A stretch of 64,000 nucleotides of DNA. It comes from Candidatus Multivorans sp. (GTDB taxonomy: Bacteria > Acidobacteriota > Thermoanaerobaculia > Multivoradales > Multivoraceae). Below the pieces are notes generated by a model, which saw only the letters and a program-made list of their open reading frames with translations, had not been told where the DNA came from and did no database searches. Positions 25,863 through 64,000 of this stretch are shown piece by piece. Within the stretch, counting starts at the first letter, position 1, and the number at the start of each line of letters is the position of its first letter. Location of the stretch: contig CBDBDB010000016.1 in the NCBI GenBank assembly GCA_965203495.1, positions 72,719 to 136,718 of the forward strand, read 5' to 3'. The translations under genes and the position numbers were made by a program.

Positions 25863-26734
25863 ACGACAGCGACAGCCTGAGTCTGACGCCGGATCTCCCA
25901 CGGCAACAGCCGGCGCCGAGACTCGTCCCGGACGCGGCCGCGGAGATGCCGTCGACCGCCTCGTCGACCGCCAGGGAGCAACGACGATTCGGTCCCCTGA
26001 GCCGCCGGCTCGCCGATCAGGGCCTGTTCCTCTTCCGTCACCGCAGCCTCTTCGTCGCGTTTCTTGCGCCCGCCGCTGCACTGGCCGTGCTTGAGCGCCG
26101 GTCGGCGGCCCTGCCGGTCGACTCGGGACTCGCCTGGCTCGCGCCATGCCTCGCCGTCTCCCTGCTCGGCCTCGGCGTGCGGTGGGCGGCCCTGGGTTCC
26201 GCGCCGCCCGGGGCCTCCACCCGGAGCCTCAGGGCGCCGAGCGCCAGCCGGCTGAACACGACCGGCATGTACTCGCTCTGCCGGCACCCGGTCTATCTCG
26301 GCAATCTCTTCGTGCTGATGGGCTTCGCGCTCGCCCTGAAGTCGTGGTGGTTCGTGGTCGTCGCCGCGCTCGTCTACTGGCTGCTCTACGAACGGGTCAT
26401 CGCGGCGGAAGAGCGGTTTCTCGGCGAGCGCTTCGGCGTGATCCACCGCCGCTGGTCGGAACGAACGCCGACCTTCTGGCCCCGGCCCCGTTTGTGGCTG
26501 TCCCCGGAGACGCGCTTCAGTTGGCGAACCGTTCTCCTCCGCGAGTACAACTCCCCGCTGCTCGTCGCGTCGACATTCCTGTTCCTGCGCGCGGTCGACC
26601 AGGTCGTTGTCGGCGGCCTCGGCCCGCAGGCGTGGTTGACGCAGGACTTCGGCCTGGTGGCGGGAGTCCTCGGGCTGACGGCGCCGGTTTCCGTTGCGCG
26701 GCAGGTGCGAAAACGCGGACGCTCGGGCCACTAG
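25859..26734 (+). CDS. isoprenylcysteine carboxyl methyltransferase (ICMT)/PEMT-family membrane methyltransferase
   Basis: TTGMYSLCRHPVYLGNLFVLMGFAL matches the ICMT/PEMT signature (G.Y...RHP.Y). ATG overlaps the ArnT stop (ATGA). Confidence 0.75.
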   Translation: MNDSDSLSLTPDLPRQQPAPRLVPDAAAEMPSTASSTAREQRRFGPLSRRLADQGLFLFRHRSLFVAFLAPAAALAVLERRSAALPVDSGLAWLAPCLAVSLLGLGVRWAALGSAPPGASTRSLRAPSASRLNTTGMYSLCRHPVYLGNLFVLMGFALALKSWWFVVVAALVYWLLYERVIAAEERFLGERFGVIHRRWSERTPTFWPRPRLWLSPETRFSWRTVLLREYNSPLLVASTFLFLRAVDQVVVGGLGPQAWLTQDFGLVAGVLGLTAPVSVARQVRKRGRSGH

Positions 26735-26804
26735 CGCGCCGGGAACCAGCCGCCAGGAATCCGTCGCGGGACGGATTCGTTGCAGAATCGGACGACGAAC
26801 CCCG

Positions 26805-29306: not shown

Positions 29307-29346
29307 CGGCCAGGCCGCTCCGGCGGCGAGTGCGATACTTGGAACG

Positions 29347-31372: not shown

Positions 31373-32849
31373 CAGCCCGTGGCAAAAGTCGGGCTGTCCG
31401 CCGTTTCGGCTATGCGATAGGATGGGTTCATGGCTATGGGCAAAAGGCGTCGTGAGAATCAGGAGCTTCTCTGGGTGTCTGGATCGGCTCTGCCGCGGAG
31501 TTCCGGCCATCCGTTCTACGAGCGTTTGGACCGTGTGCTGGAGTCGAGCGGTTTCGACGAGTTCGTCGAGTCGGAGTGTGCGGGGTTCTACGCGGAGCGG
31601 ATGGGTCGTCCGAGTCTTCCTCCAGGTACGTACTTCCGGTTGTTGATGGTGGGCTTCTTCGAGGGTCTGGATTCGGAGCGGGAGATCGCCTGGCGTGCTC
31701 AGGACTCGTTGAGCATTCGTGGGTTCCTGGGCTTGAGTGTGACGGAGGGTTCGCCGGATCATTCGACGATTTCTCGCACTCGTCGTCTGATCGATCTGGA
31801 GACTCACGGCAAGGTGTTCAGCTGGGTTCTTGAGCGCTTGGCGGAGTCGGGTCTGGTATCGGGGAAGACAGTGGGCGTGGACGCGACGACGCTGGAGGCG
31901 AACGCTGCGCTGCGCAGCATCGTTCGTCGGGATACGGGTTCTGGCTACGAGGAGTTCGTGCGTGGCTTGGCAGAGGCTTCGGGCTTGGCGACGCTGACTC
32001 GTGCGGAGTTGGCTCGTTTCGACCGCAAGCGGAAGAAGAAGCTGTCGAACGAGGAGTGGGAGAATCCTCACGATCCGGATGCCGAGGTCACGAAGATGAA
32101 GGATGGCCGCACGCACCTCGCGTACAAGGCGGAGCAGGCGGTGGACCTGGAGAGCGGGGCCATTCTGGGTGTGACGCTGCATGGCGGCGCCAAGGGAGAC
32201 ACGGAGTCGGTCCACGAGACGTTGGAGGAGACGTTCGAGCAGGTGGAGTCGGCAGTCGGCGATTCGTCGGTGATCGAGGAAGTGATTGCGGACAAGGGCT
32301 ACCACAGCAACGACGTTCTCGCCTCCATCGACGAGTTGGAGCTTCGCAGCTACATCGCGGAGCCGGACCGTGGTCGTCGTCGTTGGACAGGCAAGAAGGA
32401 CTTGCAAGCCATCGTGTACGCGAACCGTCGGCGGGTCCGCGGCAATCGGGGCAAGCGGCTGCAGCGCCGGCGCGGCGAGCGCGTCGAACGTCCCTTCGCT
32501 CACCAGTTCGAGACCGGCGGCATGCGGCGCTTGCATCTGCGCGGCCGCGACAACGCGCTCAAGCGCCTTTACATTCATTCCTGCGGCTTCAATCTCGGTC
32601 TCCTGATGAGGAGCCTCGCGGGAGTCGGCACGCCACGATCGCTGCAGGGCCGTGTCACGGCAACTCTGGGCGCCCAGACTGGCTTGCTTGCAGCGTTCAC
32701 AGCCCGATTCGACGGGCTGATGCAGTCGATCTGCGCCTCTTGGCGCGCACATCGCCTCGGCTTCCAACTTTGCGTCGCGTAGCGCTGCCCAGACTCAGCC
32801 TCGAAGCAGCAGTGGCACTCCGGGCCGAATCCACTTTTGCCACGGGCTG
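31373..32849. mobile_element. intact insertion sequence, IS5/IS1182-type (IS4/IS5 superfamily), 1477 bp
   Basis: Perfect 17-bp TIRs CAGCCCGTGGCAAAAGT (31373-31389 and 32833-32849 reverse-complemented). Flanked by a 4-bp direct repeat TTAT (31369-31372 and 32850-32853). A single transposase ORF lies inside. Confidence 0.85.
31430..32782 (+). CDS. IS5/IS1182-family DDE transposase
   Basis: 450 aa. Similarity to IS4/IS5/IS1182 transposases (N-terminal DNA-binding region, ...VGVDATTLEANAA..., ...IADKGYHS... DDE region). Lies between the TIRs. Confidence 0.88.
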   Translation: MAMGKRRRENQELLWVSGSALPRSSGHPFYERLDRVLESSGFDEFVESECAGFYAERMGRPSLPPGTYFRLLMVGFFEGLDSEREIAWRAQDSLSIRGFLGLSVTEGSPDHSTISRTRRLIDLETHGKVFSWVLERLAESGLVSGKTVGVDATTLEANAALRSIVRRDTGSGYEEFVRGLAEASGLATLTRAELARFDRKRKKKLSNEEWENPHDPDAEVTKMKDGRTHLAYKAEQAVDLESGAILGVTLHGGAKGDTESVHETLEETFEQVESAVGDSSVIEEVIADKGYHSNDVLASIDELELRSYIAEPDRGRRRWTGKKDLQAIVYANRRRVRGNRGKRLQRRRGERVERPFAHQFETGGMRRLHLRGRDNALKRLYIHSCGFNLGLLMRSLAGVGTPRSLQGRVTATLGAQTGLLAAFTARFDGLMQSICASWRAHRLGFQLCVA

Positions 32850-32985
32850 TTATGACTAGTCAAACAACGCCCGTCAAGCACCGATAGGCAACCGTCCGCA
32901 AGCGCCCGCAAGCGGACACGTGATAGAGTGCTGTTGCGCTGTCAAGCACTGGAGCGCGGCGGCTGCCGGATAGGAGGCTGATCCG

Positions 32986-33171
32986 TTGCCCGCAAGCTAC
33001 TACCCCGACACGCTGACCGTGCGGCTGCCGCCCGGCAGCCGCGATCGCGTGGTTGCCCAAGCCGCTGCGAGCGGCCAGTCGCCCGCCGACTGGCTGCGCG
33101 CCGTGATCCGCCGCGCCGTGGAGTCCGCCGAGCGCCGACGCAAGGCCGCCAACCGCGAGGCCGCATCGTGA
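32986..33171 (+). CDS. ribbon-helix-helix (CopG/Arc/ParD-like) DNA-binding protein
   Basis: 61 aa. TTG start with strong SD TAGGAGG 8 nt upstream. LTVRLPPGSRDRVVAQAAASGQSPADWLRAVIRRAVE resembles the RHH fold (beta strand, helix, helix). Confidence 0.6.
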   Translation: MPASYYPDTLTVRLPPGSRDRVVAQAAASGQSPADWLRAVIRRAVESAERRRKAANREAAS

Positions 33172-33401
33172 GCGCAACCGACACGCTCCGCACGGCCCGG
33201 ACGCTGACCGAGGCCGGAGTTCCCGATCGGCAGGCCGACGCCCACGCTCGGGCAATCGAAGACGCCGCCGCCGACGTTCTGACCCGCGTTGCGACCCGCG
33301 AAGACCTGGCGCAGATGCGCGATCAACTGACATGGCGGCTACTCGGCGGCCTGGGCGCGCTCCTCGCCCTGTTCCGCCTGTCGGAATGGCTGGCTCCGTG
33401 A
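33168..33401 (+). CDS. DUF1640-family coiled-coil protein with C-terminal TM helix
   Basis: 77 aa. GTG overlaps the RHH stop (GTGA). Pattern TLRTARTLTEAGVP...REDLAQMRDQLTWRLLGGLGALLALFRL matches DUF1640 proteins. Confidence 0.55.
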   Translation: MSATDTLRTARTLTEAGVPDRQADAHARAIEDAAADVLTRVATREDLAQMRDQLTWRLLGGLGALLALFRLSEWLAP

Positions 33402-33486
33402 TCGTCGGCGCTGTGGTCGCCTTGCTCCGACCCTGACGGTGAGCGGCGACCGCTGCCCGGAACACTTTGGGTAAAAGAGGGTTCGG

Positions 33487-33624
33487 ATGACTACTATTGT
33501 GATCGCTTGGCTTTTGTTCTCTGCTGGAATACTGCTGATGATCGCCAAGAAGCGCCGTGAAAGCAGTGGCCGTCAGAATTCGGCGCTGGGTTGGGCGATA
33601 AAGAACGCATTGAAGCGCCAGTAA
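33487..33624 (+). CDS. small hydrophobic peptide (45 aa; MTTIVIAWLLFSAGILLMIAKKRRESSGRQNSALGWAIKNALKRQ) in an AT-rich patch
   Basis: Not in the ORF track (below 60 aa). SD AAGAGGG 6 nt upstream of the ATG. Single TM helix followed by a basic tail. Local GC is far below the window average. Confidence 0.35.
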   Translation: MTTIVIAWLLFSAGILLMIAKKRRESSGRQNSALGWAIKNALKRQ

Positions 33625-33719
33625 ACCGCCGATCAGCCGGAGGCTGGCCGACCGCGCCTGCGCGGCACCGTTCTCGCCCCGGACCGTAGGAAGCGCGCCG
33701 CGGACGTAGTGCGGCGTCG

Positions 33720-34451
33720 TCACGATGCGGTGCCGTAGCGCAGTCTGGCGACGGCGCCGCGGCCTGCCAGTTCGGCCCGTGCGTGGCCGGTCGCCGTCCG
33801 CGCATCGCGCCAGCGGCCTGCCTGCATGAGTTCGGCGGTCGAGCCGCCCGCCCGGACGATGGACTGCGCCGACCCGACCCGCAGGGAGTGTCCGCTGACG
33901 CGCCCGGTGACGCCCGCGGCTTCGGCCCGGCGCCGGACGATGGAGCGGACGGACTGGGCCGTGAGGCCATCGCCGGACGGCAGCGGCTGGCCGCCGCGGC
34001 CCAGGCGTCGGAACAGCGGCCCGTCGGCGATGCCTGCCGCGTCCTGCCAGCGCTGGATCGCCCGCATGGTCGGCGCCCCGACGAACAGCACGGCGCCCTC
34101 GGCATCCTGATCCGTCTTCGAGCGCCGGACGGTGAGGCGGCCGGTTCCGTCGCCCGCGTCTTCGAGGTCGGCGACCTGGACGGCTGACGCTTCGCTGACG
34201 CGCAGGAATCCGTCAGACATGAGCCTGAGGATGGCGGCGTCGCGCAGGCCCGCAGGGCTGCCGTCGGCTGCTGCCAGCACGGCGGCGGCTTCGCGCGTCC
34301 GGTGTCGGCGCCCCGCACTCACCCTTCCCCCCTCGACTACGAGCAACTGGGACCGCCCCGGCTGCCCCTGACCGCTACGACTGCTTACCACCGGAAGGAG
34401 AACGAGGAGGAGCACTCCCGTACACCAGAAACACGGCCGAAAGTGGCTCAC
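33720..34451 (-). CDS. tyrosine recombinase/phage integrase, catalytic domain only (probably 5'-truncated)
   Basis: Integrase-family catalytic region (box I Arg around LTVRRSKTDQ, HSLRVGSAQ box II, LMQAGRW, and C-terminal ...VARLRYG nucleophile region). The N-terminal SAM-like/core-binding domain is missing. The N-terminal 70 aa of the ORF are not integrase-like. Confidence 0.6.
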   Translation of the reverse strand: MSHFRPCFWCTGVLLLVLLPVVSSRSGQGQPGRSQLLVVEGGRVSAGRRHRTREAAAVLAAADGSPAGLRDAAILRLMSDGFLRVSEASAVQVADLEDAGDGTGRLTVRRSKTDQDAEGAVLFVGAPTMRAIQRWQDAAGIADGPLFRRLGRGGQPLPSGDGLTAQSVRSIVRRRAEAAGVTGRVSGHSLRVGSAQSIVRAGGSTAELMQAGRWRDARTATGHARAELAGRGAVARLRYGTAS

Positions 34452-34465
34452 TTCCTGAGCGGCGT

Positions 34466-34879
34466 TTGGCTCACTTTCTGACCGTTGCTGCCAACGACGC
34501 GGTGGAGGAAGCGCTGGCCGACCTGGTGACCCGTGCCGACCTGTACCGTGCCCTGCCGATTCAGACTGCGGCGAACGCCGCCGTGGTCGGCGGACTGCTG
34601 GCGTTGTTCCGGCTGATCCCGCAAGCGGTCGCCCGGAATCCCGAGCCGACCCCTACCTACCCCACCGGCGCCAGCCGCGATACCGGCTCGAATCCGGTTC
34701 TTCGAGGCGCGGATGACGGACTGGCCCGCCCCGATGCCCGCCGTGCTGGACGCACTGGAGCGGGCCGGACTGCCGCCCGGCGAGACCCGCCGCCCATCGG
34801 GGAGCCGAGGTGCGGTACGGCCGACACGGGAGCCTCGCGGGACCGGCAGCTCTGCTGCCGCCTGCCCATCCTCATGTGA
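34466..34879 (+). pseudogene. partial second DUF1640-like copy (C-terminal half only), fused to non-conserved sequence
   Basis: ALADLVTRADLYRALPIQTAANAAVVGGLLALFRLIP is homologous to the C-terminus of the 33168..33401 product but has diverged at the nucleotide level. Lacks the N-terminal half. Confidence 0.3.
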
Positions 34880-35006
34880 AGCAGGACGTTTTCGGTTGCC
34901 GCCATTTCGGTTGCCGTTGAAACGCGCACCGGCGGGGACGAACCGCACCGTCCGCAATGACCAAGGAGGACGATGCTCCCATTGGCCGGTGTGCCGAGCG
35001 CGATGG

Positions 35007-36608
35007 TCACCCTGCCGGCAGTTGACCCGCCACATGGGCGGCGAACCCCGACCCCGCCTCCTCGTAGACGTTGAACACGGTCGATACGCCGGCCTGTTCG
35101 AGCGGCTCGACCTCGTCCTCGAACCAGGCCGCGGCAGTGACCCGACCGCTGAACGCGGCAGCCCTCGCCTGTTCGAGAACAGCGAGATTGGCGGCCAGGT
35201 TCGGCAACGTCAGCATGACCAGTTCGAGAGAATGGGCGGATTCGACGCGATCCCAGAAGTCAGCATCGGCGGCATCGCCCAAGAGCACGTTGCGGCCCGC
35301 TGCCCGATGCCGCCGTACAGCGATCGGATCGGTGTCGACGCCAACGACGCCCGCGCCCTCCAGTCGATGCATCGTGTCATAGGCGCCGGCCCCGATACTG
35401 CCCATGCCGATGACGGCCACTCTCGCCTGCCCGATATCGAGGCGCCGGTCATCCGAGAGGCGCCCCTGCCGCTGCAGGCGTCTCCAGACGTTCCTGTACC
35501 GGGCGTAGAGCCGATGGCCCACTGCGTCAAGGCCAGCGGATATCGCGCAGGACAGGGACAGCGCGATTGCGATGACGATCAGCCAGTCGGCGTCGATCCA
35601 GCCATTCGCAACGCCGATGGCCGCGACGATGAGCCCGAACTCACTGAAATTGCCAAGATTGATCGAGGCGAGCAGGGCCGTGCGGGCCTGAAGCCGGAAC
35701 GCCGTCAGCAGGGCCAGAAACAGGCCGGACTTGAGGAACACGAACGGCGCGGCCGCCGTGCCGACCAGGACCGTCTCCAGAGTCAGCCGACCCGACAGAC
35801 CGACGGAAAGGAAGAATGCAAGCAGAAGAAGATCCTTGAAGCCGAGCATCGCCTTTGCCATTTCATCCGCCTTGGCGTGGCCGGCGATCAGAACGCCCAG
35901 CACCAGTGCGCCCAGGTCGCCCTTGAGTCCGACCAGCTCGAACAGCCGCGCGCCGCCCAGGGCAAGCAGAAAGCCGTAGAGGATCAGGAGTTCGCCGTGG
36001 CCGACGCGGCGAAGCAAAAGGACCAGAAGCGGACGGAGCGGAAGGACGAGCATGACCAGAGGCGCCCAGTAGGTCGGCCACTGCCCAACGGAGACGGCGA
36101 GAAAGGCGACGGCCGCCAGATCCTGAACGATGAGAATTCCGATCGCGATCCGGCCGTGAAGCGCAGTGGTCTGCCCCTTGTCTTCCAGGACCTTCACGAC
36201 AAACACGGTGCTGGAAAAGCTCAAGGTGAAGGCGATCAGGAGGGAACGGGCAAGATCGAGGCCGGAAAAGAGGGATGTTCCCAGGACGGCAAGCGCATAA
36301 GCGGCCGTGGCGAACAGGAAAACGACAATCGCCATGTGCAGACCGGCGACGGCCCAGACCTGAGGCCGCGCAAAGGTTCGGAGATTGAGCTTCAAGCCGA
36401 CCGCAAACAGCAACACGGTGATGCCCAGGTCCGACAGCTCCCGGAGCATGTCCCCGCCCGAAACTCCGTAAAGGTTGAGCAGGAATCCCGTGGCCAGGAA
36501 CCCGACCAGCGGCGGCAGTCCGACCGTTCTGGACAGGAGCCCCAGAGCAAACGCCATGGCGATCCACGCCACGTCGCCGAAGTCGGTCACGATCAGCTGG
36601 AAGTCCAC
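35007..36608 (-). CDS. monovalent cation:proton antiporter-2 (CPA2, KefB-like) with C-terminal RCK/TrkA-N domain
   Basis: N-terminal TM1 aligns with KefB (AMAFALGLLSRTVGLPPLVGFLATGFLLN). About 12 TM helices. C-terminal Rossmann VAVIGMGSIGAGAYDTM (TrkA-N). GTG start at 36608 chosen from alignment. MITE copy B abuts it upstream. Confidence 0.82.
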   Translation of the reverse strand: MDFQLIVTDFGDVAWIAMAFALGLLSRTVGLPPLVGFLATGFLLNLYGVSGGDMLRELSDLGITVLLFAVGLKLNLRTFARPQVWAVAGLHMAIVVFLFATAAYALAVLGTSLFSGLDLARSLLIAFTLSFSSTVFVVKVLEDKGQTTALHGRIAIGILIVQDLAAVAFLAVSVGQWPTYWAPLVMLVLPLRPLLVLLLRRVGHGELLILYGFLLALGGARLFELVGLKGDLGALVLGVLIAGHAKADEMAKAMLGFKDLLLLAFFLSVGLSGRLTLETVLVGTAAAPFVFLKSGLFLALLTAFRLQARTALLASINLGNFSEFGLIVAAIGVANGWIDADWLIVIAIALSLSCAISAGLDAVGHRLYARYRNVWRRLQRQGRLSDDRRLDIGQARVAVIGMGSIGAGAYDTMHRLEGAGVVGVDTDPIAVRRHRAAGRNVLLGDAADADFWDRVESAHSLELVMLTLPNLAANLAVLEQARAAAFSGRVTAAAWFEDEVEPLEQAGVSTVFNVYEEAGSGFAAHVAGQLPAG

Positions 36609-36623
36609 GACGCGGACCGTCAG

Positions 36624-36781
36624 CAGCCCGTGGTGGACGAGCGCGTCGCGCCGAGAGCGGTCAGACGCCCGTCCGGCAAGGAGCGACGAGGGAGCCTGCC
36701 GGTCCAACCTCGATCGAGGAGCAACGGTGCCGGGCAGGGTGGTTGACCGCTCGAATGCAGCACGACGTTCACCAGGGGCCT
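36624..36781. repeat. MITE-like nonautonomous element, copy B (about 158 bp), with a more degraded right terminus
   Basis: Aligns base-for-base with 3359-3516 at about 78-80% identity. Begins CAGCCCGTGGTGGA... and overlaps the 5' UTR/start region of the antiporter gene. Confidence 0.6.
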
Positions 36782-36787
36782 CTAGGT

Positions 36788-37582
36788 CTAGGCGAGCGCA
36801 ACAGCCACGTCAGCCAGCCGAACGCCCAGGCGGGCCGTCCGAAGGCGGATCTTCACCAGCGGAACAAGGGCCGAAGGACGCATCAGGGCTCCTCGAACGA
36901 CCGGACCCAGCGGCATGCCCCCGTCGGGCGCCGGCACGCGCTCGAGCCACGACGGAAGTCTATCCGCCGCCGTGTCGCTGATCGCCCGCACCGCGGCGAA
37001 GGGAACGTCGGCCCGCTGAAGCACCCGGGCCGCCGCCCAGCTCTCCATGTCGACGGCGGTCCGGGGGAGGGCGCCGGCGCGCCGCCAAAGCGCCTCGCGC
37101 GACGACGCGGTGACCGCAAGACCAGGCGCCGTGACCAGAACGCCGCGGCGACAACCCCGCGCCGCGGCCGCCTCGATCAGGGTCTCGTCGCCGCTCATGG
37201 ACGGCTGGTCCGGCGCCATCACCGTCCGGCCGACGACCAGATCGCCCACCTCGAGGTCCGGCGACAGGGCGCCGGCGACGCCAAGCCAGACCACCCTGCC
37301 GCAGGCGCCGCGGGCAGCCAGGCGAACGCAGCGTTCGGCGGCCCGCCGCGCCGACCGCTCGCCGACCCCGCAAACCGCCACCTGGACGGACCGGTCTCCG
37401 ATGCGGCCTCGAACAGCCGCGGTGGCCGCGCCATCCTCGACGCGCGAGGCGTCCGCCACGCGGCGCAACAGGGTCGAAGCCTCCGACTTCATCGCGGCGA
37501 GGTAGACGGTCGGCCCTCCAGAGGCCGGCGGGGACGCCGGCGAAGCCAGTGCGGGACCCCGCGTGCCGCCCGTCGTCGTCAC
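36788..37582 (-). CDS. hpnG: hopanoid-associated phosphorylase (PNP/MTA-nucleosidase family), HpnG-like
   Basis: PNP_UDP_1-type motifs (TVYLAAMKSEA..., AVCGVGE, TAVDMESWAAARV). GTG start at 37582 overlaps the hpnA stop (GTGA). Alternative ATG at 37492. Confidence 0.7.
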   Translation of the reverse strand: MTTTGGTRGPALASPASPPASGGPTVYLAAMKSEASTLLRRVADASRVEDGAATAAVRGRIGDRSVQVAVCGVGERSARRAAERCVRLAARGACGRVVWLGVAGALSPDLEVGDLVVGRTVMAPDQPSMSGDETLIEAAAARGCRRGVLVTAPGLAVTASSREALWRRAGALPRTAVDMESWAAARVLQRADVPFAAVRAISDTAADRLPSWLERVPAPDGGMPLGPVVRGALMRPSALVPLVKIRLRTARLGVRLADVAVALA

Positions 37583-38583
37583 CGACGCGGCCCCGCCTTC
37601 ACGTAACCGTTCCGCTCGAACCACCGCACGGCGCGCCGGAGCGCGTCTTCGATCGGACTCTGGACGAGGCCGAGCTCCCGAACCGCCTTGTCGGCGTCGA
37701 AGAACATCCTGTGGCGCGCCATGCGCGCACTGTCGAGAGCGATGCGCGGTTCACCCCCGGCCAGCCGCGCCCAGCCGGTCGCCAGGGCCGCGAAGCCGAT
37801 CGGCAGCCAGTGCGGCAGCCGCAGGCGCGGCGCTTCGATCCCCGTGATGTCCGCCAGCATCCGCAGCATCTCGATCAGGGTGACGTTGCGGTGGCCGAGA
37901 ATGTACTTCTCGCCGACGCGGCCGCGCTCCGCGGCCAGCAGGTGGCCCCGGGCCACATCGTGCACGTCGATCAGGTTGAGCCCGGTGTCGACGGTCGCCG
38001 GCATGCGCCGAGCCAGGAAGTCGACGATGATCCGCCCGGTCGGCGTCGGCTTGACGTCCAGTTCGCCAACCGGCGTCGACGGGTTCACGATGACGACCGG
38101 CACGCCGTCCGCGGCCGCCTCGACGGCGACGCGCTCGGCCTGGTGCTTGCTGCGCTTGTAGTGCCCGACCATCGCCCCGACGCGGACGGGAGTCGTCTCG
38201 GTCGCGGGGAGGCCGTCCGGTTCCAGACCGAGCGCACCCACCGAACTCGTGTAGACGATTCGTTCCGCTCCCGCCTCGGCCGCCGCCGCCAGCAGGTGGC
38301 GCGTGCCGTCGACGTTCGAGGCGTAGAGGTCACGCGGGCGGCGGGCGAACAGACGGTAGTCGGCGGCACAGTGGTAGACCTCGCCGCAACCCGCGCAGGC
38401 TGCCCGGAGACTTGCGGGATTCCGCAGATCCCCCTCGACGACCTCCACGTCGCAGCCCTCGAGGTTCGAGCGGTTTCCGCCCGGCCGCGCCAGGCAACGA
38501 ACGCGGTCCCCGCCGCGAGCGAGCAACGCCCGGACCACGTGCGCGCCGACGAACCCGGCGCCGCCCGTGACGAGGACCGTCAC
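37579..38583 (-). CDS. hpnA: hopanoid-associated NAD-dependent sugar epimerase/dehydratase HpnA
   Basis: MTVLVTGGAGFVGAHVVRAL Rossmann start and SDR-extended epimerase core (YxxxK: YKRSKHQAE). Sits between hpnH and hpnG. Confidence 0.85.
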   Translation of the reverse strand: MTVLVTGGAGFVGAHVVRALLARGGDRVRCLARPGGNRSNLEGCDVEVVEGDLRNPASLRAACAGCGEVYHCAADYRLFARRPRDLYASNVDGTRHLLAAAAEAGAERIVYTSSVGALGLEPDGLPATETTPVRVGAMVGHYKRSKHQAERVAVEAAADGVPVVIVNPSTPVGELDVKPTPTGRIIVDFLARRMPATVDTGLNLIDVHDVARGHLLAAERGRVGEKYILGHRNVTLIEMLRMLADITGIEAPRLRLPHWLPIGFAALATGWARLAGGEPRIALDSARMARHRMFFDADKAVRELGLVQSPIEDALRRAVRWFERNGYVKAGPRR

Positions 38584-55957: not shown

Positions 55958-57094
55958 CTACGCCGACAACAGCGTCTCGACCAGCGTGGTCCAGTAGCGC
56001 ATGCCCAAGGGCAGGATGTCGTCGTTGAAGTCGTAGCGGGGGGTGTGGAGGCCGGCGCTGTCGCCGTTGCCCAGGAACATGAAGGCGCCGGGACGCTCCT
56101 GGAGCATGTAGGCGAAGTCCTCGGAACCCATGACGGGCGAGAGGTCCGTGGCGACGTCCTCGCCGACCTCCCGGGCGGCGTTCGCCGCCTTCTTCGTCTG
56201 CTCGGCGTGGTTCACGGTGGCCGGGTAATAGCGGCGATACTGGAACTCGAAGCCGGCGCCGTGGGCCGCGCAGATGCCGCCGCCGATCTGGCGCATCCGC
56301 CGTTCAACGAGCTGCTGCACTTCGGGCAGAAACGCCCGGACGCAGCCGCCGTGAACGACGCGGCTCGGGATGACGTTGTCCGCGCGACCGCCGTGAACGC
56401 GTGTCACGGTGATCACCGCGCTGTTCAGCGGGTCCACGTTGCGTGCAACGATCGTCTGCAGGGCGAGAACGATCTCGGCCGCGACCGGAATCGGGTCCAC
56501 CGTACCGTGGGGGAACGCCGCGTGGCCGCCGGCGCTGGTGACGGCAAACTCGAACACGTCGATCGCGGCCATCAGCGGCCCGGCGCGCAGGCCGAAGGCG
56601 CCGACTTCCATTCCCGGGTAGTTGTGGACGCCGTAGACCTCCTCGGCGGGGAACCGCTCGAACAGGCCCTCCTCGATCATCACGCGGGCGCCGCCATCCT
56701 TCTCTTCGGCGGGCTGGAAGACGAAGTAGACCGTGCCGTCGAAGGACCGGTTCCGGCTCAGATGGCTCGCCGCGCCGAGCAGCATCGCCGTGTGGCCGTC
56801 GTGACCGCAGGCGTGCATCCTGCCGGGGTTCCGGGAGCGGTGCTCGAAGTCGTTCTCCTCCTCGATCGGCAGCGCGTCCATGTCCGCGCGGAGCGCGATG
56901 CCGCGATCCGACGAGCCGGACTTCAACACGCCGACAACGCCGGTGCCAGCAAGACCGCGGTGGACCTCGATGTCGCCGAACGACTCGAGCAGCGCCGCCA
57001 CCTTCCGGCTGGTTTCCACTTCCTCGAACGCGAGCTCGGGGTGTCGGTGGAAGTCCCGCCTCCAGGACCTCATCTGTTCGTGCAGTGGATCCAT
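55958..57094 (-). CDS. M20D family amidohydrolase (hippurate hydrolase/aminoacylase-like)
   Basis: 378 aa starting MDPLHEQMRSWRRDFHRHPELAFEE (typical M20D start). Metal ligands in ...ADMDALP...HACGHDGH... and the C-terminal GSEDFAYM block. Confidence 0.85.
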   Translation of the reverse strand: MDPLHEQMRSWRRDFHRHPELAFEEVETSRKVAALLESFGDIEVHRGLAGTGVVGVLKSGSSDRGIALRADMDALPIEEENDFEHRSRNPGRMHACGHDGHTAMLLGAASHLSRNRSFDGTVYFVFQPAEEKDGGARVMIEEGLFERFPAEEVYGVHNYPGMEVGAFGLRAGPLMAAIDVFEFAVTSAGGHAAFPHGTVDPIPVAAEIVLALQTIVARNVDPLNSAVITVTRVHGGRADNVIPSRVVHGGCVRAFLPEVQQLVERRMRQIGGGICAAHGAGFEFQYRRYYPATVNHAEQTKKAANAAREVGEDVATDLSPVMGSEDFAYMLQERPGAFMFLGNGDSAGLHTPRYDFNDDILPLGMRYWTTLVETLLSA

Positions 57095-57316
57095 CAGCCT
57101 GAATGGTAGCGGAGAGACCCCGAAGAGGTCCGGAGCGTCAGGGACTGTTCGTCATTCGGGCCTCCGGCAGCAGCGCCAGGCATCGTGAACGCGCGGGACT
57201 TCAAGCCGCGAACGTTCTCGTGACGGCGCCCAGGGCGCCCTGACTGCGGATTCTCGCCCCGCGCTCCAGACGGGAAACGGATGGCAAGCGGGTCCGCGGG
57301 CGGCGGAAGGGCGTCC

Positions 57317-58912
57317 TCAGGCCCGCCGCTTCTTCTTGCTCACGCCGAGCGTCTCCCTCACCCTGACGTCGACTTTCTGGTCGATCCGCGACGCGGCGAG
57401 CCGAACGAGGAGATCGGAGGGTTCCACCCAGGTCGTGACCGGCGGCTCGCCATCGAACTCGATCCGCATCTTCCCCCGCTCGATCGTCATCTCGTACCGC
57501 CCCCTCTCCAGGCTGATCCGGGAGCGAATGCAGGGCCACTTCAACTGGCGGGCCAGTTCGAGCGCCGCGTCCTGCTCGCGCTTTCCCCAAGGCTCGGCCT
57601 GGAACAGTTCGTACAAGGGGAGGACGCGCTCCGGCGGCTTGCCGATGTCGAAGCCCGAGGCATCCAGCCGATGCGCCAGAGCGGACATTCGGTGGGTCAC
57701 GGCTTTCCGCAGCTCCGGCCCTCCGCGCAGGTCGAGCGGCAGCTTCAGCCAACCGTCGCGCGCCCCGAACAGGATGGCGGCCGCCAGCCGGTCGTCCTCC
57801 TTGAGTACAGAATGATCCTCGATCAGGTCGAGCAGGTCCGAACTCCGCTCGCGCAGACCCTTGCAGGCCTGTGCGTTGATAACGAGGATACCGCCCCGGT
57901 CGAAGCGGACTTCCGGCCGGTGCTGGCGATGGAACGTCTCGATCTCCGGTCGGCCGTTGTCCAGCGAGACAGTCGCGCGAACGCGCTTCAGCTCCTGAAG
58001 GTACTCCTCCCTCACCTTGTTGTTCGGCGCGATCACGCCGACCAGGCGGCGGGGATCCTGATCCCAGTGCCGCAGGACGTTCCCGGCGATTCGGGGCATC
58101 GCCGCTTCGTTCACCAGGTAGAGCCTGGGCACGTAGGCCGTGCCCGCCTCGGGCGGCAGGTCGGGTGGCGGAGACGCCGGATCGCCCGTGTAGAACGCTC
58201 GCGCCAGCCGAGCGATCCCATGCCGGTTGCGGTGGTTCCGCTTCAGTTCGACGACTTTGCCGCATAGACGATCCTCCAACTCTCGACGGCTCGAATTCTC
58301 GTCCTTGATCTGCTGGTTCTGATCGGCGGCCACGAAGATGTTGGCGAACCCGACGTTGTTCAGGAAGTCGTAGAAGCCGGGCGGCATGTCCTGGCCTTCG
58401 TCGATCACGAGGATCGGGAAGTCGCGCGTTCCATTCTCCGGGAGCGGCAACTCCTCGATCGTCCGCCTCACGGCTTGCCAGTCGAAGGGTCGCCAGTTCG
58501 ACCCGCTCTTCGGATCGCGTTTCGGCGTGTCTCTTCCGACCGCCTTCTTGAACTCGCTCCCGAACCAGGACATCCACGTCCTGGCCTCGAGTTCGCCATC
58601 AAACATTGCCTCGGACGCACGGAGCAGGAGGTGGTTCCAGACGAGGAAGACGTAGTCCTCGCCGTTTCGAGCGTGGCGTCGCGCTCGCAGCAGACAGACC
58701 ACCGTCTTGCCCGTGCCGGGTCCGCCAACGATCAGATACCGCCCCTTGCTCGGCAACGCCGGACCTCCGCCCGCTCCTGCACCGCCACATCCGCCACCCG
58801 ATGATGCACCTCCGCCAGCCGACGCTGCGCACGGCAGCGCCAACACCCGCTCCTGCTCCTTCGTCAGGTCTTCGATTCCCGGCAGCTCGTACCGACGCTC
58901 TCTACCCGCCAC
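57317..58912 (-). CDS. UvrD/Rep-like SF1 helicase-family P-loop NTPase (divergent, short)
   Basis: LTKEQERVLALP...GRYLIVGGPGTGKT (motif Ia/I), ILVIDEGQDM (motif II), KRNHRN (compare motif IV NYRS), ACKGLRE (compare motif V). GTG start at 58912 with perfect SD GGAGGAG 7 nt upstream. The N-terminal 94 aa of the track ORF are rejected. Confidence 0.65.
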   Translation of the reverse strand: MAGRERRYELPGIEDLTKEQERVLALPCAASAGGGASSGGGCGGAGAGGGPALPSKGRYLIVGGPGTGKTVVCLLRARRHARNGEDYVFLVWNHLLLRASEAMFDGELEARTWMSWFGSEFKKAVGRDTPKRDPKSGSNWRPFDWQAVRRTIEELPLPENGTRDFPILVIDEGQDMPPGFYDFLNNVGFANIFVAADQNQQIKDENSSRRELEDRLCGKVVELKRNHRNRHGIARLARAFYTGDPASPPPDLPPEAGTAYVPRLYLVNEAAMPRIAGNVLRHWDQDPRRLVGVIAPNNKVREEYLQELKRVRATVSLDNGRPEIETFHRQHRPEVRFDRGGILVINAQACKGLRERSSDLLDLIEDHSVLKEDDRLAAAILFGARDGWLKLPLDLRGGPELRKAVTHRMSALAHRLDASGFDIGKPPERVLPLYELFQAEPWGKREQDAALELARQLKWPCIRSRISLERGRYEMTIERGKMRIEFDGEPPVTTWVEPSDLLVRLAASRIDQKVDVRVRETLGVSKKKRRA

Positions 58913-58980
58913 GGCGGCTCCTCCGGATATCCCGAACTGCGCCAGGCCCGACAGTCGACGGCACGAACGTCCTCCGCCTC

Positions 58981-60918
58981 TCAGAGCGCATGGGGGCGAC
59001 TCCCTTCGCGGCTCGCCAACTCCCACAAGGACCGAAGATCCGCCCCGTCGCCCGTCACGAACGCTCGATCCAGAAGGCGGTTGCCGCAGATGCAACTCGG
59101 TTCGGGCACGAGCGCGCAGGCATGGCAGGCGGCCCGGTTCAGCAGGTCCGGTCCGTGCCCCTCCTGCTCGGCGCAGACCGGGTCGAACGAGCACCAGGAG
59201 GCGTCGTCGACGGCGCCGGAGAGCAGCCGCAGGAACCGGTCCGGCTGTGCCAGGTCCATCAAGCCGCCGAGGGAACCCTGCTCGTCCGGGACCGCCACGT
59301 AGATCAGGATGCCGGCCATCGGTTCGCCGTCGTCCCGGCCATCGGCGCAGTAGATGCGCTCCTTGAGCGAAGCCGCGGGATACCCCGCCTGCGTCTCCAG
59401 ACGGCGGATGACGAGATGAGCAAGCGTGTGGCAGAGAAGGAAGCGGGGAGACAGGGACGCCCCGACTGAGCGTTCAATGAAGGGTGCGGTCCGCCTCCGC
59501 GCGGCGTCCTGAAGCTCCCAGCGTCTCACGACCTCCTCGCCAAGCGAAAAGAACAGGCCCTCGCCCCAGAGTTCCAGAGCCGGCAGCCAGTCGCTCTTGC
59601 CGACGACTTTGGGCGGAGTCACGGGACGCTGCTCTTCGCCGCTGCCCCAAACGCGGCGAAAACCGTCGAAGACCATGATCTCCTTGACCCGATGGACGGC
59701 CACCAGGCGATCCACCGCGGTGACGATCCCCGCCGACGGACTTCCCGGATCGACCGCGAGCCGTCGCCAAGCCGCCGAGAGGTGCTCGGTAACGAGGTCC
59801 TCGTCCGGCAGAAGATCGGGGATCGGCTCGGTCAGCGCGCGAAACTCCAGGGACTCGAGATTGCCCGGCGGCAGTTCCAGGTGCGGATACCCGCCGTCGA
59901 TCTCCGCCAGTGCCGCCTTGATTTCAGCCGGCGAGCGCCGGTACTTGTTGGCCAGACTCCGCAACCTGGCCTTGCGATCAAACTCGTTTCGCACGGCACG
60001 AACGGACCGTTGATCGGCGGAACTGCTGTAGAGGCGATCGACGACGCTGCCCCGCCTGATCCGGGATTCGGGCGGAATGACGAGCGCCGTCCGGCACTCC
60101 GCGTAGTGGACGCGAACGTCGTTGACGCCGACCAGCCAGCCCGGTTCGCTCGGCGTCTCCGGCGGCGGCTCACGAACCCAAGGCTGCCGCCGCGTGCTGG
60201 CGCCGAACGGAAAGCGATCGGGTAGGCGCCGCTCGGCGCCACAGCCGCGCTGCGAGCACTTCACCCACCACCGACCTTCCCTGTTCTCGACCCTCAGGTA
60301 CGGTTCGATCCAGTCGGGCCCGCAGGCCCGCCGATCCGGGTTCCTGGCCGCGTCATGAGCGATCGCGTGCCACGGCACGTCCGCGAGGTGGCCGTCTTCA
60401 TGGATCAGCACCCAGGGAACCTGCTCCAGGATGCCGTCGCACGGCCTTGCCTCGCCCCGCCGCGCCGGCCTTCCTCTTCCGCCGCCAGACGCCGACGGCA
60501 CTACCTTGCAACGGAGCGGCGCCGCCTGGCGATCCGTCATGCCAACGTCCCGTTCGCGGCCGGTCAGCGCGCCGGCGGCGCCGCGGCATCGCCACGGCCT
60601 GTTGTGGAGCAGTCCGCACCGGCTGCAGCGGGTCCACTCGGGAAAGCGACGGGCCGCGACCCACCCTTGAACGTGTTCTCCCTTCCGCTTCTTCACCGGC
60701 GGGAGACAGAGCTTCGTGTCGCCCAGGCCGAGCGAACGCTTGACCAGCGACACGTACTTGATCTCGCGCTCGTCCGGGCTCGTGTTCGGGCCGTCCCAGT
60801 GCCGCGTGTCCTGAACCACCATCAGCGTCCTGTCGTGGCGGACGATCGCCCCCACCGAGCAGTCCCGCAGCAGGTGGGACAGCCGGATGTCGACGAACGT
60901 CCTGTCGGGCTGTCTCAA
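58981..60918 (-). CDS. DUF1998-domain protein (DrmB/MrfA-C-terminal-like), Cys-cluster C-terminus
   Basis: 645 aa. C-terminal region ...FLLCHTLAHLVIRRL...GILIYVAVPDEQGSLGGL...RAACHACALVPEPSCICGNRLLDRAF shows the conserved DUF1998 core with the terminal Cys cluster. TTG start at 60918 with a GAGGT SD 10 nt after the helicase stop. Confidence 0.7.
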   Translation of the reverse strand: MRQPDRTFVDIRLSHLLRDCSVGAIVRHDRTLMVVQDTRHWDGPNTSPDEREIKYVSLVKRSLGLGDTKLCLPPVKKRKGEHVQGWVAARRFPEWTRCSRCGLLHNRPWRCRGAAGALTGRERDVGMTDRQAAPLRCKVVPSASGGGRGRPARRGEARPCDGILEQVPWVLIHEDGHLADVPWHAIAHDAARNPDRRACGPDWIEPYLRVENREGRWWVKCSQRGCGAERRLPDRFPFGASTRRQPWVREPPPETPSEPGWLVGVNDVRVHYAECRTALVIPPESRIRRGSVVDRLYSSSADQRSVRAVRNEFDRKARLRSLANKYRRSPAEIKAALAEIDGGYPHLELPPGNLESLEFRALTEPIPDLLPDEDLVTEHLSAAWRRLAVDPGSPSAGIVTAVDRLVAVHRVKEIMVFDGFRRVWGSGEEQRPVTPPKVVGKSDWLPALELWGEGLFFSLGEEVVRRWELQDAARRRTAPFIERSVGASLSPRFLLCHTLAHLVIRRLETQAGYPAASLKERIYCADGRDDGEPMAGILIYVAVPDEQGSLGGLMDLAQPDRFLRLLSGAVDDASWCSFDPVCAEQEGHGPDLLNRAACHACALVPEPSCICGNRLLDRAFVTGDGADLRSLWELASREGSRPHAL

Positions 60919-60925
60919 GACAGGT

Positions 60926-63900
60926 CTACCTCACGCCCAGCACGGCGGGACTCTCGACGTTGCGCATCGAGTGCAGGGTGGGCCAGAGTCCCGGCGCGCC
61001 CCAGCCGTCCTCGAAACCGCGGAGGAGGCGGTCGAAGGCCTTGTCTTTCGCCTGGTAGTGCAGTCCTCGCGCACTCGCCCGGCAACGCGCGGCTTCCTGA
61101 TGCCACTGTTCCAGAAGCCGGTCGACGTCCTCGCTCGCCTCGACCGCCTTCTCCGGACAGGCTCTCTCCGCGCGTCGCTTGAACTCGTCGACGACTCGAC
61201 GCACGTCCGGGAGGCCGGAATCGAAGTTCCCCGCCGCCCGGTTCGCCGCGAGGCCGTCGCAGCCATGACGAAGCGCGATGACCAGGGCGGCGTGAAGCGC
61301 CCGCTTCCGCACCTGAAACGTGTACGGCGTCACGCTGCTCGGCTCGACGAAGCGGTAGAACGACTCGTGGTACGGCCGGAACGACTCGTAGTGGGAGAGG
61401 CTCCTGGCCTGGCGCCGGTAGTAGTTGGCGACGACGACGCCCGGCGCCTCGGCGCGGCCGACCCGGCTCGTCGCCTGCACGTACTCGCCCGTGGTCAGGG
61501 GCTGGCGATTGACGACCATCAGCGCCAGCCGGGAGACGTCGAGACCCACCGACACCATGTTCGTGGACAGCACGGCGTCCAGACAGCGGTCGGCGCCCCG
61601 CGGTTCGCCGAGGCGCTCGAAGATGTCCGCGAGATATTCGGCGGTGTGACGGCTCCAGAGTTGTTCCACTTGCGGTTCACGGAAGCGGCGGCGCAGTTCC
61701 TTCTCGATCGGATCCTGGTCGCTGTCCTCTTGCGTCTCTCCGCCGGCCGGCTCGCCGCGACGATTCCGCTCGGCGACGTATTCCGCGATCAGTCGTTCGC
61801 CGAACTCGCGAACGTCCGCCTGGAAGGCGTTGCTGCTCGTGCCGACGCCGCGCAGGCTGCCGTGGTAGACGACGTTCGTCCACCACGCCTCGAACAGGTC
61901 CTCCTCGTCCACGTCGCCGCGGAAGACGACAAGCGGCGCCGCGACCAGGCACGCGGCCAGCGGCGCGAAACAGTGCTGATGGTCCTTGAGCGGCGCGAGG
62001 TAGCCAACGTAGAGCCGACCGGGACGACTTCGATCGACCCGCGCAAACCAGGAGTCATCGCAGGAGAGACCGGGAGGCGGGAACACGGCGACCTCGCGCC
62101 CGTACAGCGCTCGCACCTGCTCGCCGGCCATGCGGATGGTGGCGGTGGAAGCGATGTACTTCGGCTGCACTCCCCGACAGCGAACGGCGGTCTCGATCCC
62201 CGCCTCGTAGAGGCCCGCCACCGAGCCGAGCGGCCCGGAGATCAGGTGCAGCTCGTCCTGAAGCACCAGGTCCGGCGCGCGGCGGTCGCGGCCGGCGCCG
62301 AAGAAGGCGGCCGCGCGTTCCTCCCAGGCCAGCCGCGCGAACTTGTCGATCGTGCCGATCAGAAGAGACGGCGGGTGCGCGTAGAGCGACTCGTCGACAA
62401 CGCGGCAAGGCAGGGGATCCTCGCGCCGACCGAAGACGCAGTCGCGGTTCGTGCAGTGGAAACGGAAATCCGGGTACACGGCCTCGTAGCCGCGCTCGCC
62501 GTCGAAGGGCTCGCCGCACCACGGGCAGCGGGAGAGCAACAGACTCTTCGGAGCCGTGTCGCCCACATCGCCGGACCGCATCTCCTCCACGATCGCCGCC
62601 GCGTCCCGGATCGTGTTCGGACAGACGCCGCTCCCGACCCAGATGCCGACGCTGAACGGCTCTTCGCCCAGCCGCCCCTCCCCCTCCGCATCCTCGCGGC
62701 GCAACAGCTCCAGAGCGCAGATCAGTCCCGCGGCCCGCTCGAACTGCTGCCGCGTCAGCAGCCGCAGCGTGTAGCGCATGAAGGCCGCCGTTCCGCCGCC
62801 ACGCTCGCCGTGGCGGAGGCGCCGCCACACGAGCAGAAACGCGATCAGCCCCAGATACGCTTCCGTCTTGCCGCCGCCCGTCTGAAACCAGATCAGGTCG
62901 AGCACGTCCCGGTGCTCGTCCCGCTCCGACACGGTCGACTCGATCGTGCCGAGCAGGAAGCCGAGCTGGAACGGTCGCCACGCCCGGGTCTCGTCGCGAC
63001 CGACGCCGAACTGGATCATCTGCCGGAGCATCGCCCGGTTGGCAAGTCGGAACGCCAGCGCCGCGTCCGCGTCGCCGGCGAGCATCTCGACGCCGCGAAG
63101 CATGCGTTCGCGGGCCAGTTCCATCCGTTCGCAGATGCGGTGCGCGGCCTCCCGGTCTCGCTCGTCCTCGATCCGTTCGGCCTCGGCGCGACGCTCCCTC
63201 GCCCAATCCGCATACTCGCCAATGAAGCCCCTGAGCGATTCCAACGGCAGTTCATCCGCGGCCAGTCGCTCCATCTCCAGTGCCTTGGCGTCGCCGCGGG
63301 CCGCCACGCTCACGATCGGCGACTCCGCTCGAGGCAGAAAGCTCGACCGAATGCGGACGACCTTTCCGGTGTCCTCGTCGTCGTTGTCCTCGTCCTCGCT
63401 CCAGTCGGCGGCCGCTCCGTGCCCGACCGCAAAGATGCGCCGCCCGCGGTATTGAAGCTCCAGTTCCCGCTCCTCGTCCGTCAGCAGATTCGGATCGACA
63501 CGCGGATAGTCGACGACGTCTCCCGCCTCGACGAAGCACTCGATCCGGGCTTCGAAGAGGGATCGCTCCACCCGCGCGACTGCTCTTTCGCGGCCGACTT
63601 CGTCCGTCGCCAGCGACTGCCGGTTGAACAGCGTCAAGGTCAGAATCGTCCCTGGCCCATGCGGCCGGGCGCGAACGTCGATTCCCGCGCGATCGTCCCA
63701 GATGGGAACACGGGAATCTTCGCCGTGGCAAACACGGTCCGCCGGCGCCAGCTTCCGCCTCGCATACCGCCGCTGGAACCGTCCGCTTTCGTCACGAAAC
63801 TCTTCTTGCTCGTACACGGCGGCCGACGCCTCGATCCGCAACCGGACGTTCCCTCGCACACAGAACGAACAGCCGACCGAGGACGGCGGCACGTACCGTC

Positions 63901-63931
63901 GGCGGCGGACCGGCTCGGCCTTGCGCCCCAT
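60926..63931 (-). CDS. SF2 DEAD/DEAH-box-type helicase (DrmA-like / split MrfA-like helicase component)
   Basis: 1001 aa. Motif I FQTGGGKTEAY, motif II DELH (LVLQDELHLISGPLGS), motif III ASTAT, motif VI QATSRVGRAE. Large N-terminal non-helicase region. The gene directly precedes the DUF1998 gene. The upstream context is cut off by the window end. Confidence 0.75.
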   Translation of the reverse strand: MGRKAEPVRRRRYVPPSSVGCSFCVRGNVRLRIEASAAVYEQEEFRDESGRFQRRYARRKLAPADRVCHGEDSRVPIWDDRAGIDVRARPHGPGTILTLTLFNRQSLATDEVGRERAVARVERSLFEARIECFVEAGDVVDYPRVDPNLLTDEERELELQYRGRRIFAVGHGAAADWSEDEDNDDEDTGKVVRIRSSFLPRAESPIVSVAARGDAKALEMERLAADELPLESLRGFIGEYADWARERRAEAERIEDERDREAAHRICERMELARERMLRGVEMLAGDADAALAFRLANRAMLRQMIQFGVGRDETRAWRPFQLGFLLGTIESTVSERDEHRDVLDLIWFQTGGGKTEAYLGLIAFLLVWRRLRHGERGGGTAAFMRYTLRLLTRQQFERAAGLICALELLRREDAEGEGRLGEEPFSVGIWVGSGVCPNTIRDAAAIVEEMRSGDVGDTAPKSLLLSRCPWCGEPFDGERGYEAVYPDFRFHCTNRDCVFGRREDPLPCRVVDESLYAHPPSLLIGTIDKFARLAWEERAAAFFGAGRDRRAPDLVLQDELHLISGPLGSVAGLYEAGIETAVRCRGVQPKYIASTATIRMAGEQVRALYGREVAVFPPPGLSCDDSWFARVDRSRPGRLYVGYLAPLKDHQHCFAPLAACLVAAPLVVFRGDVDEEDLFEAWWTNVVYHGSLRGVGTSSNAFQADVREFGERLIAEYVAERNRRGEPAGGETQEDSDQDPIEKELRRRFREPQVEQLWSRHTAEYLADIFERLGEPRGADRCLDAVLSTNMVSVGLDVSRLALMVVNRQPLTTGEYVQATSRVGRAEAPGVVVANYYRRQARSLSHYESFRPYHESFYRFVEPSSVTPYTFQVRKRALHAALVIALRHGCDGLAANRAAGNFDSGLPDVRRVVDEFKRRAERACPEKAVEASEDVDRLLEQWHQEAARCRASARGLHYQAKDKAFDRLLRGFEDGWGAPGLWPTLHSMRNVESPAVLGVR

Positions 63932-64000
63932 CCCCCCGGGCTCGCCGTCCCGCGGCGCCTCCTCCGGGTCCTCCTCCGGCGGAGAGCCGCCCGGGCCGCT

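Follow-up and report, generated by a model that had tools for sequence, protein, structure and literature searches.

A 64,000-nucleotide (nt) stretch of Candidatus Multivorans sp. (contig CBDBDB010000016.1, positions 72,719 to 136,718), hereafter the window, carries at its right end a locus related to the DISARM defence system. The G+C content of the window is about 69%. As first described, three minus-strand open reading frames (ORFs) follow each other head to tail at 60926..63931, 58981..60918, and 57317..59194. The first two encode a superfamily 2 (SF2) helicase and a DUF1998 protein, and the third combines parts of two families, here named U402 (about 400 amino acids [aa]) and X534 (about 530 aa). 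The features of the locus are:

60926..64000, minus strand: drmA, SF2 helicase gene, cut by the window edge, its first 66 codons lying beyond base 64000
58981..60918, minus strand: drmB, encoding a DUF1998/MZB protein of 645 aa, apparently intact
57317..58912, minus strand: third gene, chimeric ORF of 531 aa joining U402 in frame to the 3' third of the X534 gene (tblastn, blastn, and profile)
57854..58912, minus strand: U402-derived part, a compact UvrD/Rep-core superfamily 1 (SF1) ATPase
57317..57856, minus strand: X534-derived part, comprising the C-terminal portion of a predicted ADP-ribosylhydrolase (ARH)-like helical domain and, after it, the small beta domain at the C terminus (AlphaFold [AF2] model and fold searches)
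57854..57856, minus strand: deletion junction with a 3-nt CTG microhomology (DNA comparison with the relative L001)
58745..58831, minus strand: Gly/Ala/Ser-rich insertion of about 27 aa, CAASAGGGASSGGGCGGAGAGGGPALPSK, which separates Walker A from the conserved ELPGIEDLTKEQ motif of the N terminus

The drmA frame contains no stop codon up to base 64000, and its translation upstream of the ATG previously taken as the start keeps aligning with relatives. A 100%-identical database protein (P0387) shows that the full DrmA is 1090 aa long and that this ATG corresponds to residue 90, which places the real drmA start about 198 nt outside the window. The length of 1001 aa first attributed to the helicase thus results from its truncation at the window edge. 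The ORF at 60926..63931 encodes the motifs GGGKT (aa 352), DELH (aa 559), TAT (aa 596), and QATSRVGR (aa 819). The first two are those reported in the preliminary description, whereas the SAT and QxxGRxGR motifs given there are not literally present and correspond to the last two. The stop codon of drmA is separated from drmB by 7 nt, or by the 10 nt originally counted if the stop codon is included. The Cys cluster ascribed to the 645-aa protein, AACHACALVPEPSCICGNRLLDR, was found at aa 596 and spans aa 596-618. The DUF1998 assignment agrees with the Pfam MZB/DUF1998 model (31.8 bits for a cut-off of 24.2) and with the NCBIfam DrmB_fam model (302.6 bits for a cut-off of 240, with positions 4-602 of 604 of the profile covered).

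Both proteins match the PADLOC models, DrmA at 2.8e-181 and DrmB at 3.2e-52. With the NCBIfam model DISARM_DrmAS, the window DrmA scores 751.7 bits and its full-length relatives from the conserved cassette described below 781-828 bits, all under the equivalog cut-off of 950; these relatives form a sister group to the proteins named DrmA by NCBI. An alternative is a housekeeping repair helicase of the MrfA/YprA type that has been split in two and has an SF1 helicase as partner. The DUF1998/MZB domain is common to MrfA as well, and the downstream flank is made up of housekeeping genes. However, when the window DrmA and DrmB were compared with all PDB sequences by phmmer, MrfA gave no match; the sole matches were DrmA (7s9v_A, 2.6e-128) and DrmB (7s9v_B, 2.2e-51) of the Serratia DISARM system. 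TIGR03817 and the other non-Drm NCBIfam helicase models reached about 19 bits or less. The PADLOC, NCBIfam, and PDB matches indicate that the DrmA-DrmB reading, also put forward at the outset, is right and the split-MrfA reading wrong. Judged from its sequence, the pair is a true DrmA/DrmB in DISARM order.

The third gene starts with a GTG at 58912, preceded at 5 nt by the excellent Shine-Dalgarno (SD) sequence already noted (GGAGGAG, 58918-58924). According to the G+C content at third codon positions (GC3), it forms a single coding frame down to 57317. Its product carries a Walker A (GPGTGKT) and a Walker B (DEGQD) motif. More than 1200 homologues were retrieved, of about 400 aa and with a UvrD_C_2 domain, which span only about 70% of the protein; only its own database copy matches it from end to end. 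The remainder was traced by comparison with L001, a syntenic acidobacteriotal locus. In tblastn searches with the L001 proteins, aa 1-344 of U402 match the window at 58912-57794, and aa 338-533 of X534 match it at 57955-57344. The X534 profile matches only the tail of the database protein P0001, at residues 301-471. At the DNA level, window 58783->57854 aligns with L001 10054->10975 on the U402 side, and window 57856->57632 with L001 12289->12513 on the X534 side. At the junction, the window reads GGTCTG|CGCGAGCGGAGTTCGG, L001 U402 reads GGTCTG|GAGTTCGAC, and L001 X534 reads TTCCTG|CGCCAGCGGAGTTCGG. Relative to L001, about 1316 nt are absent from the window, and their loss brings two differently framed genes into frame, codon ~325 of U402 being joined to codon ~362 of X534.

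The first ~353 residues of the encoded protein are therefore of the U402 type and the last ~178 are derived from the 530-aa X534. About 70 loci in other phyla carry separate full-length U402 and X534 genes, which identifies the fused state as derived. The alignments thus characterize the third gene as an in-frame deletion fusion of two ancestral genes and not a natural single gene. The preliminary description had proposed a divergent UvrD-like P-loop protein in the place of DrmC; this holds for the SF1 ATPase part, whereas the remainder comes from the DarT-like/ARH-like gene X534. The chimera keeps the SF1 Walker A, Walker B, QNQQ, and NHRN motifs, as well as KGL, with which motif V begins. 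It lacks the rest of motif V ("EFD"), the arginine finger of motif VI ("SRAR"), and the entire DarT-like transferase domain predicted for X534. When the translation was compared with U402 homologues, the insertion of about 27 aa was absent from every relative examined, and a TRF scan gave no sign that it is a tandem repeat.

A scan with the U402 profile, limited to one genome per species, retrieved 79 loci, the relatives being mostly metagenome-assembled genomes (MAGs). X534 is present in 73 of them, in the colinear order DrmA (~1080 aa), DrmB (~615 aa), U402 (~390-400 aa), and X534 (~530 aa), and the four genes are all intact in single ORFs in 55 loci. Gene boundaries overlap or abut, as in L083 (8115/8122, 10001/10001, and 11185/11186), and these start/stop overlaps suggest one operon. 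Directly 3' of X534, 39 loci, and four more with extended ORFs, contain a gene of ~530-550 aa encoding a NERD domain and an SF1 helicase; this gene is not present in 26 loci and adjoins the cassette in about 45, or some 60%. All-against-all clustering of the flanking ORFs around the 73 loci revealed no other conserved neighbour. Six contexts annotated with Pfam contain housekeeping, toxin-antitoxin (TA), reverse transcriptase (RT), or insertion sequence (IS) genes, and no methyltransferase, SNF2, or phospholipase D (PLD) gene.

Carriers of the cassette, spread over Acidobacteriota, Chloroflexota, and other phyla, include Vicinamibacterales, Gemmatimonadota, Gamma-, Alpha-, and Deltaproteobacteria, Caldilineaceae, Latescibacterota, and Rhodothermales. 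Among them are the cultured Rhodanobacter thiooxydans (strain LCS2), Halomonas tibetensis (KCTC 52660), Halorhodospira abdelmalekii (DSM 2110), Thiorhodococcus mannitoliphagus, Desulfobacter latus, and Moraxella nonliquefaciens. The distribution is sporadic: across phyla the cassette occupies differing chromosomal sites, often beside TA, RT, or IS genes, and it is disrupted in several genomes. This is typical of defence islands and not of core repair genes. A split housekeeping MrfA/YprA helicase, for which we also found no match in the sequence searches, is at odds with such a distribution, and we consider it extremely unlikely.

Several individual loci deserve mention. In a deltaproteobacterial locus, an RVT_1 gene lies directly upstream of drmA (L086 3670-4890, L087 326-1450). 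PIN/PhdYeFM TA pairs lie near or adjoin the cassette in L083 (12899-13519) and L086 (19318-19995). Neighbours of these two kinds resemble those of defence islands. DrmA and DrmB form one ORF of ~1650 aa, with the fused layout of YprA, in a Rhodothermales MAG (L079 5050-9993), and DrmB and U402 lie within one ORF in L070 (515-3475); both could be either true fusions or sequencing errors. In L084 (12766-19643), X534 is followed by a NERD/AAA_30 gene split into ORFs of 341 and 162 aa, and then by a 1671-aa protein with DEAD/Helicase_C and two UvrD-helicase regions. A tblastn search of X534 against plasmids gave no match.

U402 is an SF1 ATPase of ~400 aa with a UvrD/Rep core and no room for accessory domains. 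It shares with the DarHTG system a UvrD-family helicase devoid of the 2B domain: DarHTG (Liu-DS3) consists of such a helicase, of DarT, and of the ARH-like antitoxin DarG3 (NAR 2026, PMC13069673). Distant U402-like SF1 genes were also identified in Firmicutes MAGs (L074 1243-4382, L080 11219-14042, L081 11206-14018). They are followed by two genes of conserved size (~550-610 and ~380-446 aa), which may represent another helicase-associated module. A bridge to DarHTG through these Firmicutes genes (L074, L078, L080, and L081) was considered and rejected, as the genes downstream have no match to Pfam or to the X534 profile.

The X534 family comprises 624 clusters at 50% identity. We found no match to it in Pfam, NCBIfam, or PADLOC, and the search of the X534 profile against PDB sequences returned only noise. 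An AF2 model built with 42 sequences is confident, with a predicted local distance difference test (pLDDT) of 86.9 and a predicted template modelling score (pTM) of 0.87. The best seven Foldseek matches of this model are all DarT, with a probability of 1.00. In 20 of the 42 members, the Pfam model 2CompART (ADP-ribosyltransferase) gives a sub-threshold match. X534 is thus predicted to begin with a domain of DarT-like ADP-ribosyltransferase fold, to continue with a central helical domain resembling ARH, and to end in a small beta domain. Invariant polar residues of the N-domain are T38, N39, N42, K61, Y63, D65, E98, and R208; H40 and E139 are found in most members. When the N-domain was compared by hhalign with DarT, represented by three sequences, the alignment was confined to the strand that follows the catalytic Glu and was not significant (E = 0.7); we therefore claim neither sequence homology to DarT nor an identified catalytic residue. 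Homologues of ~595-640 aa, mostly on Gemmatimonadota-type contigs (P0142-P0167), possess an N-terminal helix-turn-helix (PF01527/PF13518); at least one of them is annotated as a transposase, which looks like a misannotation.

Downstream of the third gene, the window carries two further features:

57133..57249, plus strand: remnant of the gene for Y220, a PD-(D/E)XK nuclease (last ~30 codons and intergenic stretch; blastn and tblastn)
55958..57094, minus strand: M20 amidohydrolase gene, the first housekeeping gene and downstream boundary of the island (Pfam Peptidase_M20, 2e-49)

The organization of L001 is leuS, NERD-UvrD, DrmA, DrmB (split by an IS), the 402-aa U402, and the 534-aa X534. These are followed by a 220-aa PD-(D/E)XK protein encoded on the other strand and by the M20, hydrolase, and phasin genes that the window also carries. 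Y220 matches the Pfam Hjc and PADLOC CARF_PDDEXK models, and its gene is complete in both syntenic relatives, L001 and L005. In the window, by contrast with these, its tblastn match is confined to aa 192-220, and window 57249->57133 aligns with L001 12881->12996 at 84.6% identity. A second deletion thus removed the neighbouring nuclease gene from the window. The window M20 protein (358.8 bits with the NCBIfam amidohydrolase model) is 91% identical to that of L001 and is followed by lipid and polyhydroxyalkanoate (PHA)-type housekeeping genes, so that the island ends at about 57.2 kb. In L001 itself, drmB is interrupted by an IS with DDE_Tnp_1/DUF4096 ORFs (7107-9932), and the NERD-UvrD gene is broken into ORFs of 384 and 110 aa (2214-3832). 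The cassette therefore appears to decay independently in this lineage.

These data bear on whether the fused gene might itself be functional. Under this alternative, an N-terminal SF1 ATPase tethered to the ARH-like/C-terminal module would be a new architecture, and the reduced three-gene system would work. The junction is exactly in frame, there are no stops, GC3 is high throughout, the SD is strong, and DrmA and DrmB are intact. The protein nonetheless has neither the arginine finger of motif VI nor the second half of motif V, it retains nothing of the conserved X534 N-domain, and it is the sole such architecture among the matches listed for either parent family. Together with the loss of the adjoining nuclease gene and the independent decay of the sister genome, with its IS in drmB and its split NERD gene, this makes a functional fusion unlikely. 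The deletions might also be artefacts of metagenome assembly, the real genome having an intact cassette: almost all relatives are MAGs, and the source contig probably belongs to one as well. However, the genes are joined at a clean microhomology of 3 nt, which brings their differing frames into register, no repeat is long enough to mislead an assembler, and two separate deletions fall within the same 2 kb. We regard an assembly artefact as highly improbable.

It remained to consider that the locus is a canonical (class 1 or 2) DISARM, with the methyltransferase, SNF2/DrmE, and PLD genes just outside the window and the third gene an accessory. The matches of DrmA and DrmB to DISARM models are strong, and the sequence past base 64000 was not read; methyltransferase or SNF2 partners had indeed been expected there. 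In the syntenic relatives, however, a NERD-UvrD gene occupies this position, directly upstream of DrmA in L005, and upstream but split in L001, where a leucyl-tRNA synthetase gene lies beyond it. None of the 73 related loci has a conserved methyltransferase, SNF2, or PLD neighbour, drmB is never followed by a PLD gene, and the full-length cassette DrmA proteins stay under the equivalog cut-off, as noted above. A canonical DISARM is very unlikely on these grounds.

We consider it probable that the window holds a copy, now in decay, of a conserved DISARM relative that lacks a methyltransferase and has a DarT-like/ARH-like partner. Most likely, its effector half is dead and the locus non-functional. 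The preliminary description is thus confirmed in part for its observations and supported in part for its interpretation: a non-canonical DISARM variant or novel DUF1998-based system is borne out insofar as no DrmC, methyltransferase, or SNF2 is conserved and the family is apparently undescribed, the window holding a defective copy of it. Several points weigh against this conclusion. Neither PADLOC and Pfam nor the PDB profile search links X534 significantly to DarT or ARH by sequence, and its assignment as transferase and hydrolase comes from a predicted structure. X534 has an invariant Leu where DarT has its canonical beta-1 His, and the conserved acidic residue E139 is two positions off the catalytic Glu of DarT as placed by hhalign. 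The gene content upstream of the window drmA (beyond 64000) is inferred from the two syntenic relatives. Finally, the chimeric ORF is in frame with a normal codon bias, which could reflect recent decay or some retained function.

Elsewhere in the window, a segment of lower G+C content than its surroundings (31430-37606, 0.65-0.68) is probably a small mobile element. It carries an IS5/DUF772-type DDE transposase gene (31430-32782, plus strand), a gene for a recombinase of the phage integrase family (33720-34451, minus strand), and two sizeable ORFs without Pfam match (34713-36746 and 36743-37606, plus strand). Adjoining it, at 26694-30927, genes for an 870-aa vWA-domain protein and a 526-aa AAA_22/AAA_35 ATPase might form a conflict or defence module. 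Scans of the window for Rfam families and tRNAs gave no match; thus, no tRNA-linked integration site was found in it.

How might the intact cassette act? In the Serratia DISARM, a trigger loop keeps DrmAB autoinhibited, and 5'-overhang DNA activates it (PMC9142583). By analogy, DrmAB of the cassette would load and translocate on free single-stranded DNA (ssDNA), 5' overhangs, or replication intermediates of the invader. The U402 motor and the X534 transferase might then ADP-ribosylate bases of the exposed ssDNA and stall phage replication, as in DarTG and DarHTG. The ARH-like domain could be an antidote or regulator in cis, preventing or reversing self-modification, and the NERD-helicase, where encoded, might degrade marked or unwound DNA. 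Self DNA would be spared by sensing of DNA structure and not by methylation. As a tentative model, which we put forward as a possibility, DrmAB would thus be the sensing and unwinding front end of a methylation-independent immunity, whose DarT-like ssDNA-ADP-ribosylating effector would be checked by a fused ARH-like domain and aided by a minimal SF1 motor, with or without a NERD nuclease-helicase.

If this model is true, the cassette would define a new class of DISARM-related system and bridge DISARM and DarTG/DarHTG mechanistically. How phage are arrested by DISARM after DNA binding by DrmAB is not settled, and the roles of the nuclease and methylase partners are debated. A cassette that keeps DrmAB and swaps all other DISARM components for a DarHTG-like helicase/ADP-ribosyltransferase module amounts to a natural experiment. 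It suggests that DrmAB is a portable sensor and motor that can be coupled to differing effectors, predicts methylation-independent sparing of self, and offers a testable effector chemistry, DNA ADP-ribosylation. A likely function is also assigned to a family of ~530 aa devoid of Pfam, NCBIfam, or PADLOC annotation. The window locus provides a snapshot of the decay of a defence system, the sister genome having been inactivated independently.

Among known systems, MrfAB, involved in mitomycin repair in Bacillus subtilis, shares with the cassette an SF2 helicase and a DUF1998/MZB zinc domain. MrfA is however a single polypeptide that works with the exonuclease MrfB, whereas the cassette is split and has no detectable MrfA match; neither the tail of the window nor the contexts of the relatives contain an MrfB-type 3'-5' exonuclease gene. 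The most complete census of YprA-family systems names ARMADA, BRIGADE, and TALON, refers to "many uncharacterized DISARM-like classes", and nowhere mentions ADP-ribosylation (Bell et al. 2025, bioRxiv 10.1101/2025.09.15.676423). Like ARMADA, Druantia III, and other YprA systems, the cassette has a YprA-family helicase as the core of a multi-helicase defence operon, and the GajB/UvrD-like helicase of ARMADA II is a further likeness. ARMADA combines a fused YprA helicase with a BrxHII-like helicase and a PglX-like methyltransferase, whereas the cassette has split DrmA and DrmB, which belong to the DISARM-like clade, and no methyltransferase. Neither a BrxHII-like helicase nor a PglX-like methyltransferase was found among its neighbours by flank clustering or in the annotated contexts.

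With DISARM (Ofir et al. 2018; Bravo et al. 2022, PMC9142583), the cassette shares separate drmA and drmB genes in the same order. DrmC is absent, the gene after drmB being the SF1/X534 chimera in the window and never a PLD gene in relatives. DrmMI or DrmMII methyltransferase genes are found neither downstream in the window nor within ~8-10 kb in the relatives. The same neighbour surveys revealed no DrmD (SNF2) or DrmE, X534 having no PADLOC match. Lacking these three defining features, the cassette is not a canonical DISARM; in their stead, it combines DrmAB with an SF1 ATPase and a DarT-like/ARH-like protein, and often also with a NERD-helicase.

The likeness to DarTG (LeRoux et al. 2022, as cited in PMC13069673) lies in the predicted DarT-like fold, which suggests an ssDNA ADP-ribosylation chemistry. 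Unlike DarTG, the cassette has no macrodomain DarG, the canonical beta-1 His is not conserved in it, and its module forms part of a helicase operon of four or five genes. DarHTG, which protects Escherichia coli against T4, T5, T7, and SSL_2009a and depends for this on the active site of DarT as well as the ATP site of the helicase (PMC13069673), was compared with the cassette by fold and description. Like DarHTG, the cassette places side by side a compact UvrD-family motor and what are predicted to be a DarT-type fold and an ADP-ribosylglycohydrolase-like module. In the cassette, however, the transferase-like and hydrolase-like parts form one polypeptide, always downstream of DrmAB, and the likeness to DarT is structural, the Pfam and PADLOC DarT models giving no match. 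In full-text literature searches, we found no paper tying DrmAB or DUF1998 to a DarT-like protein. We therefore file the cassette as new: a widespread and apparently undescribed system in which a DISARM-type helicase core is joined to a DarHTG-like module.

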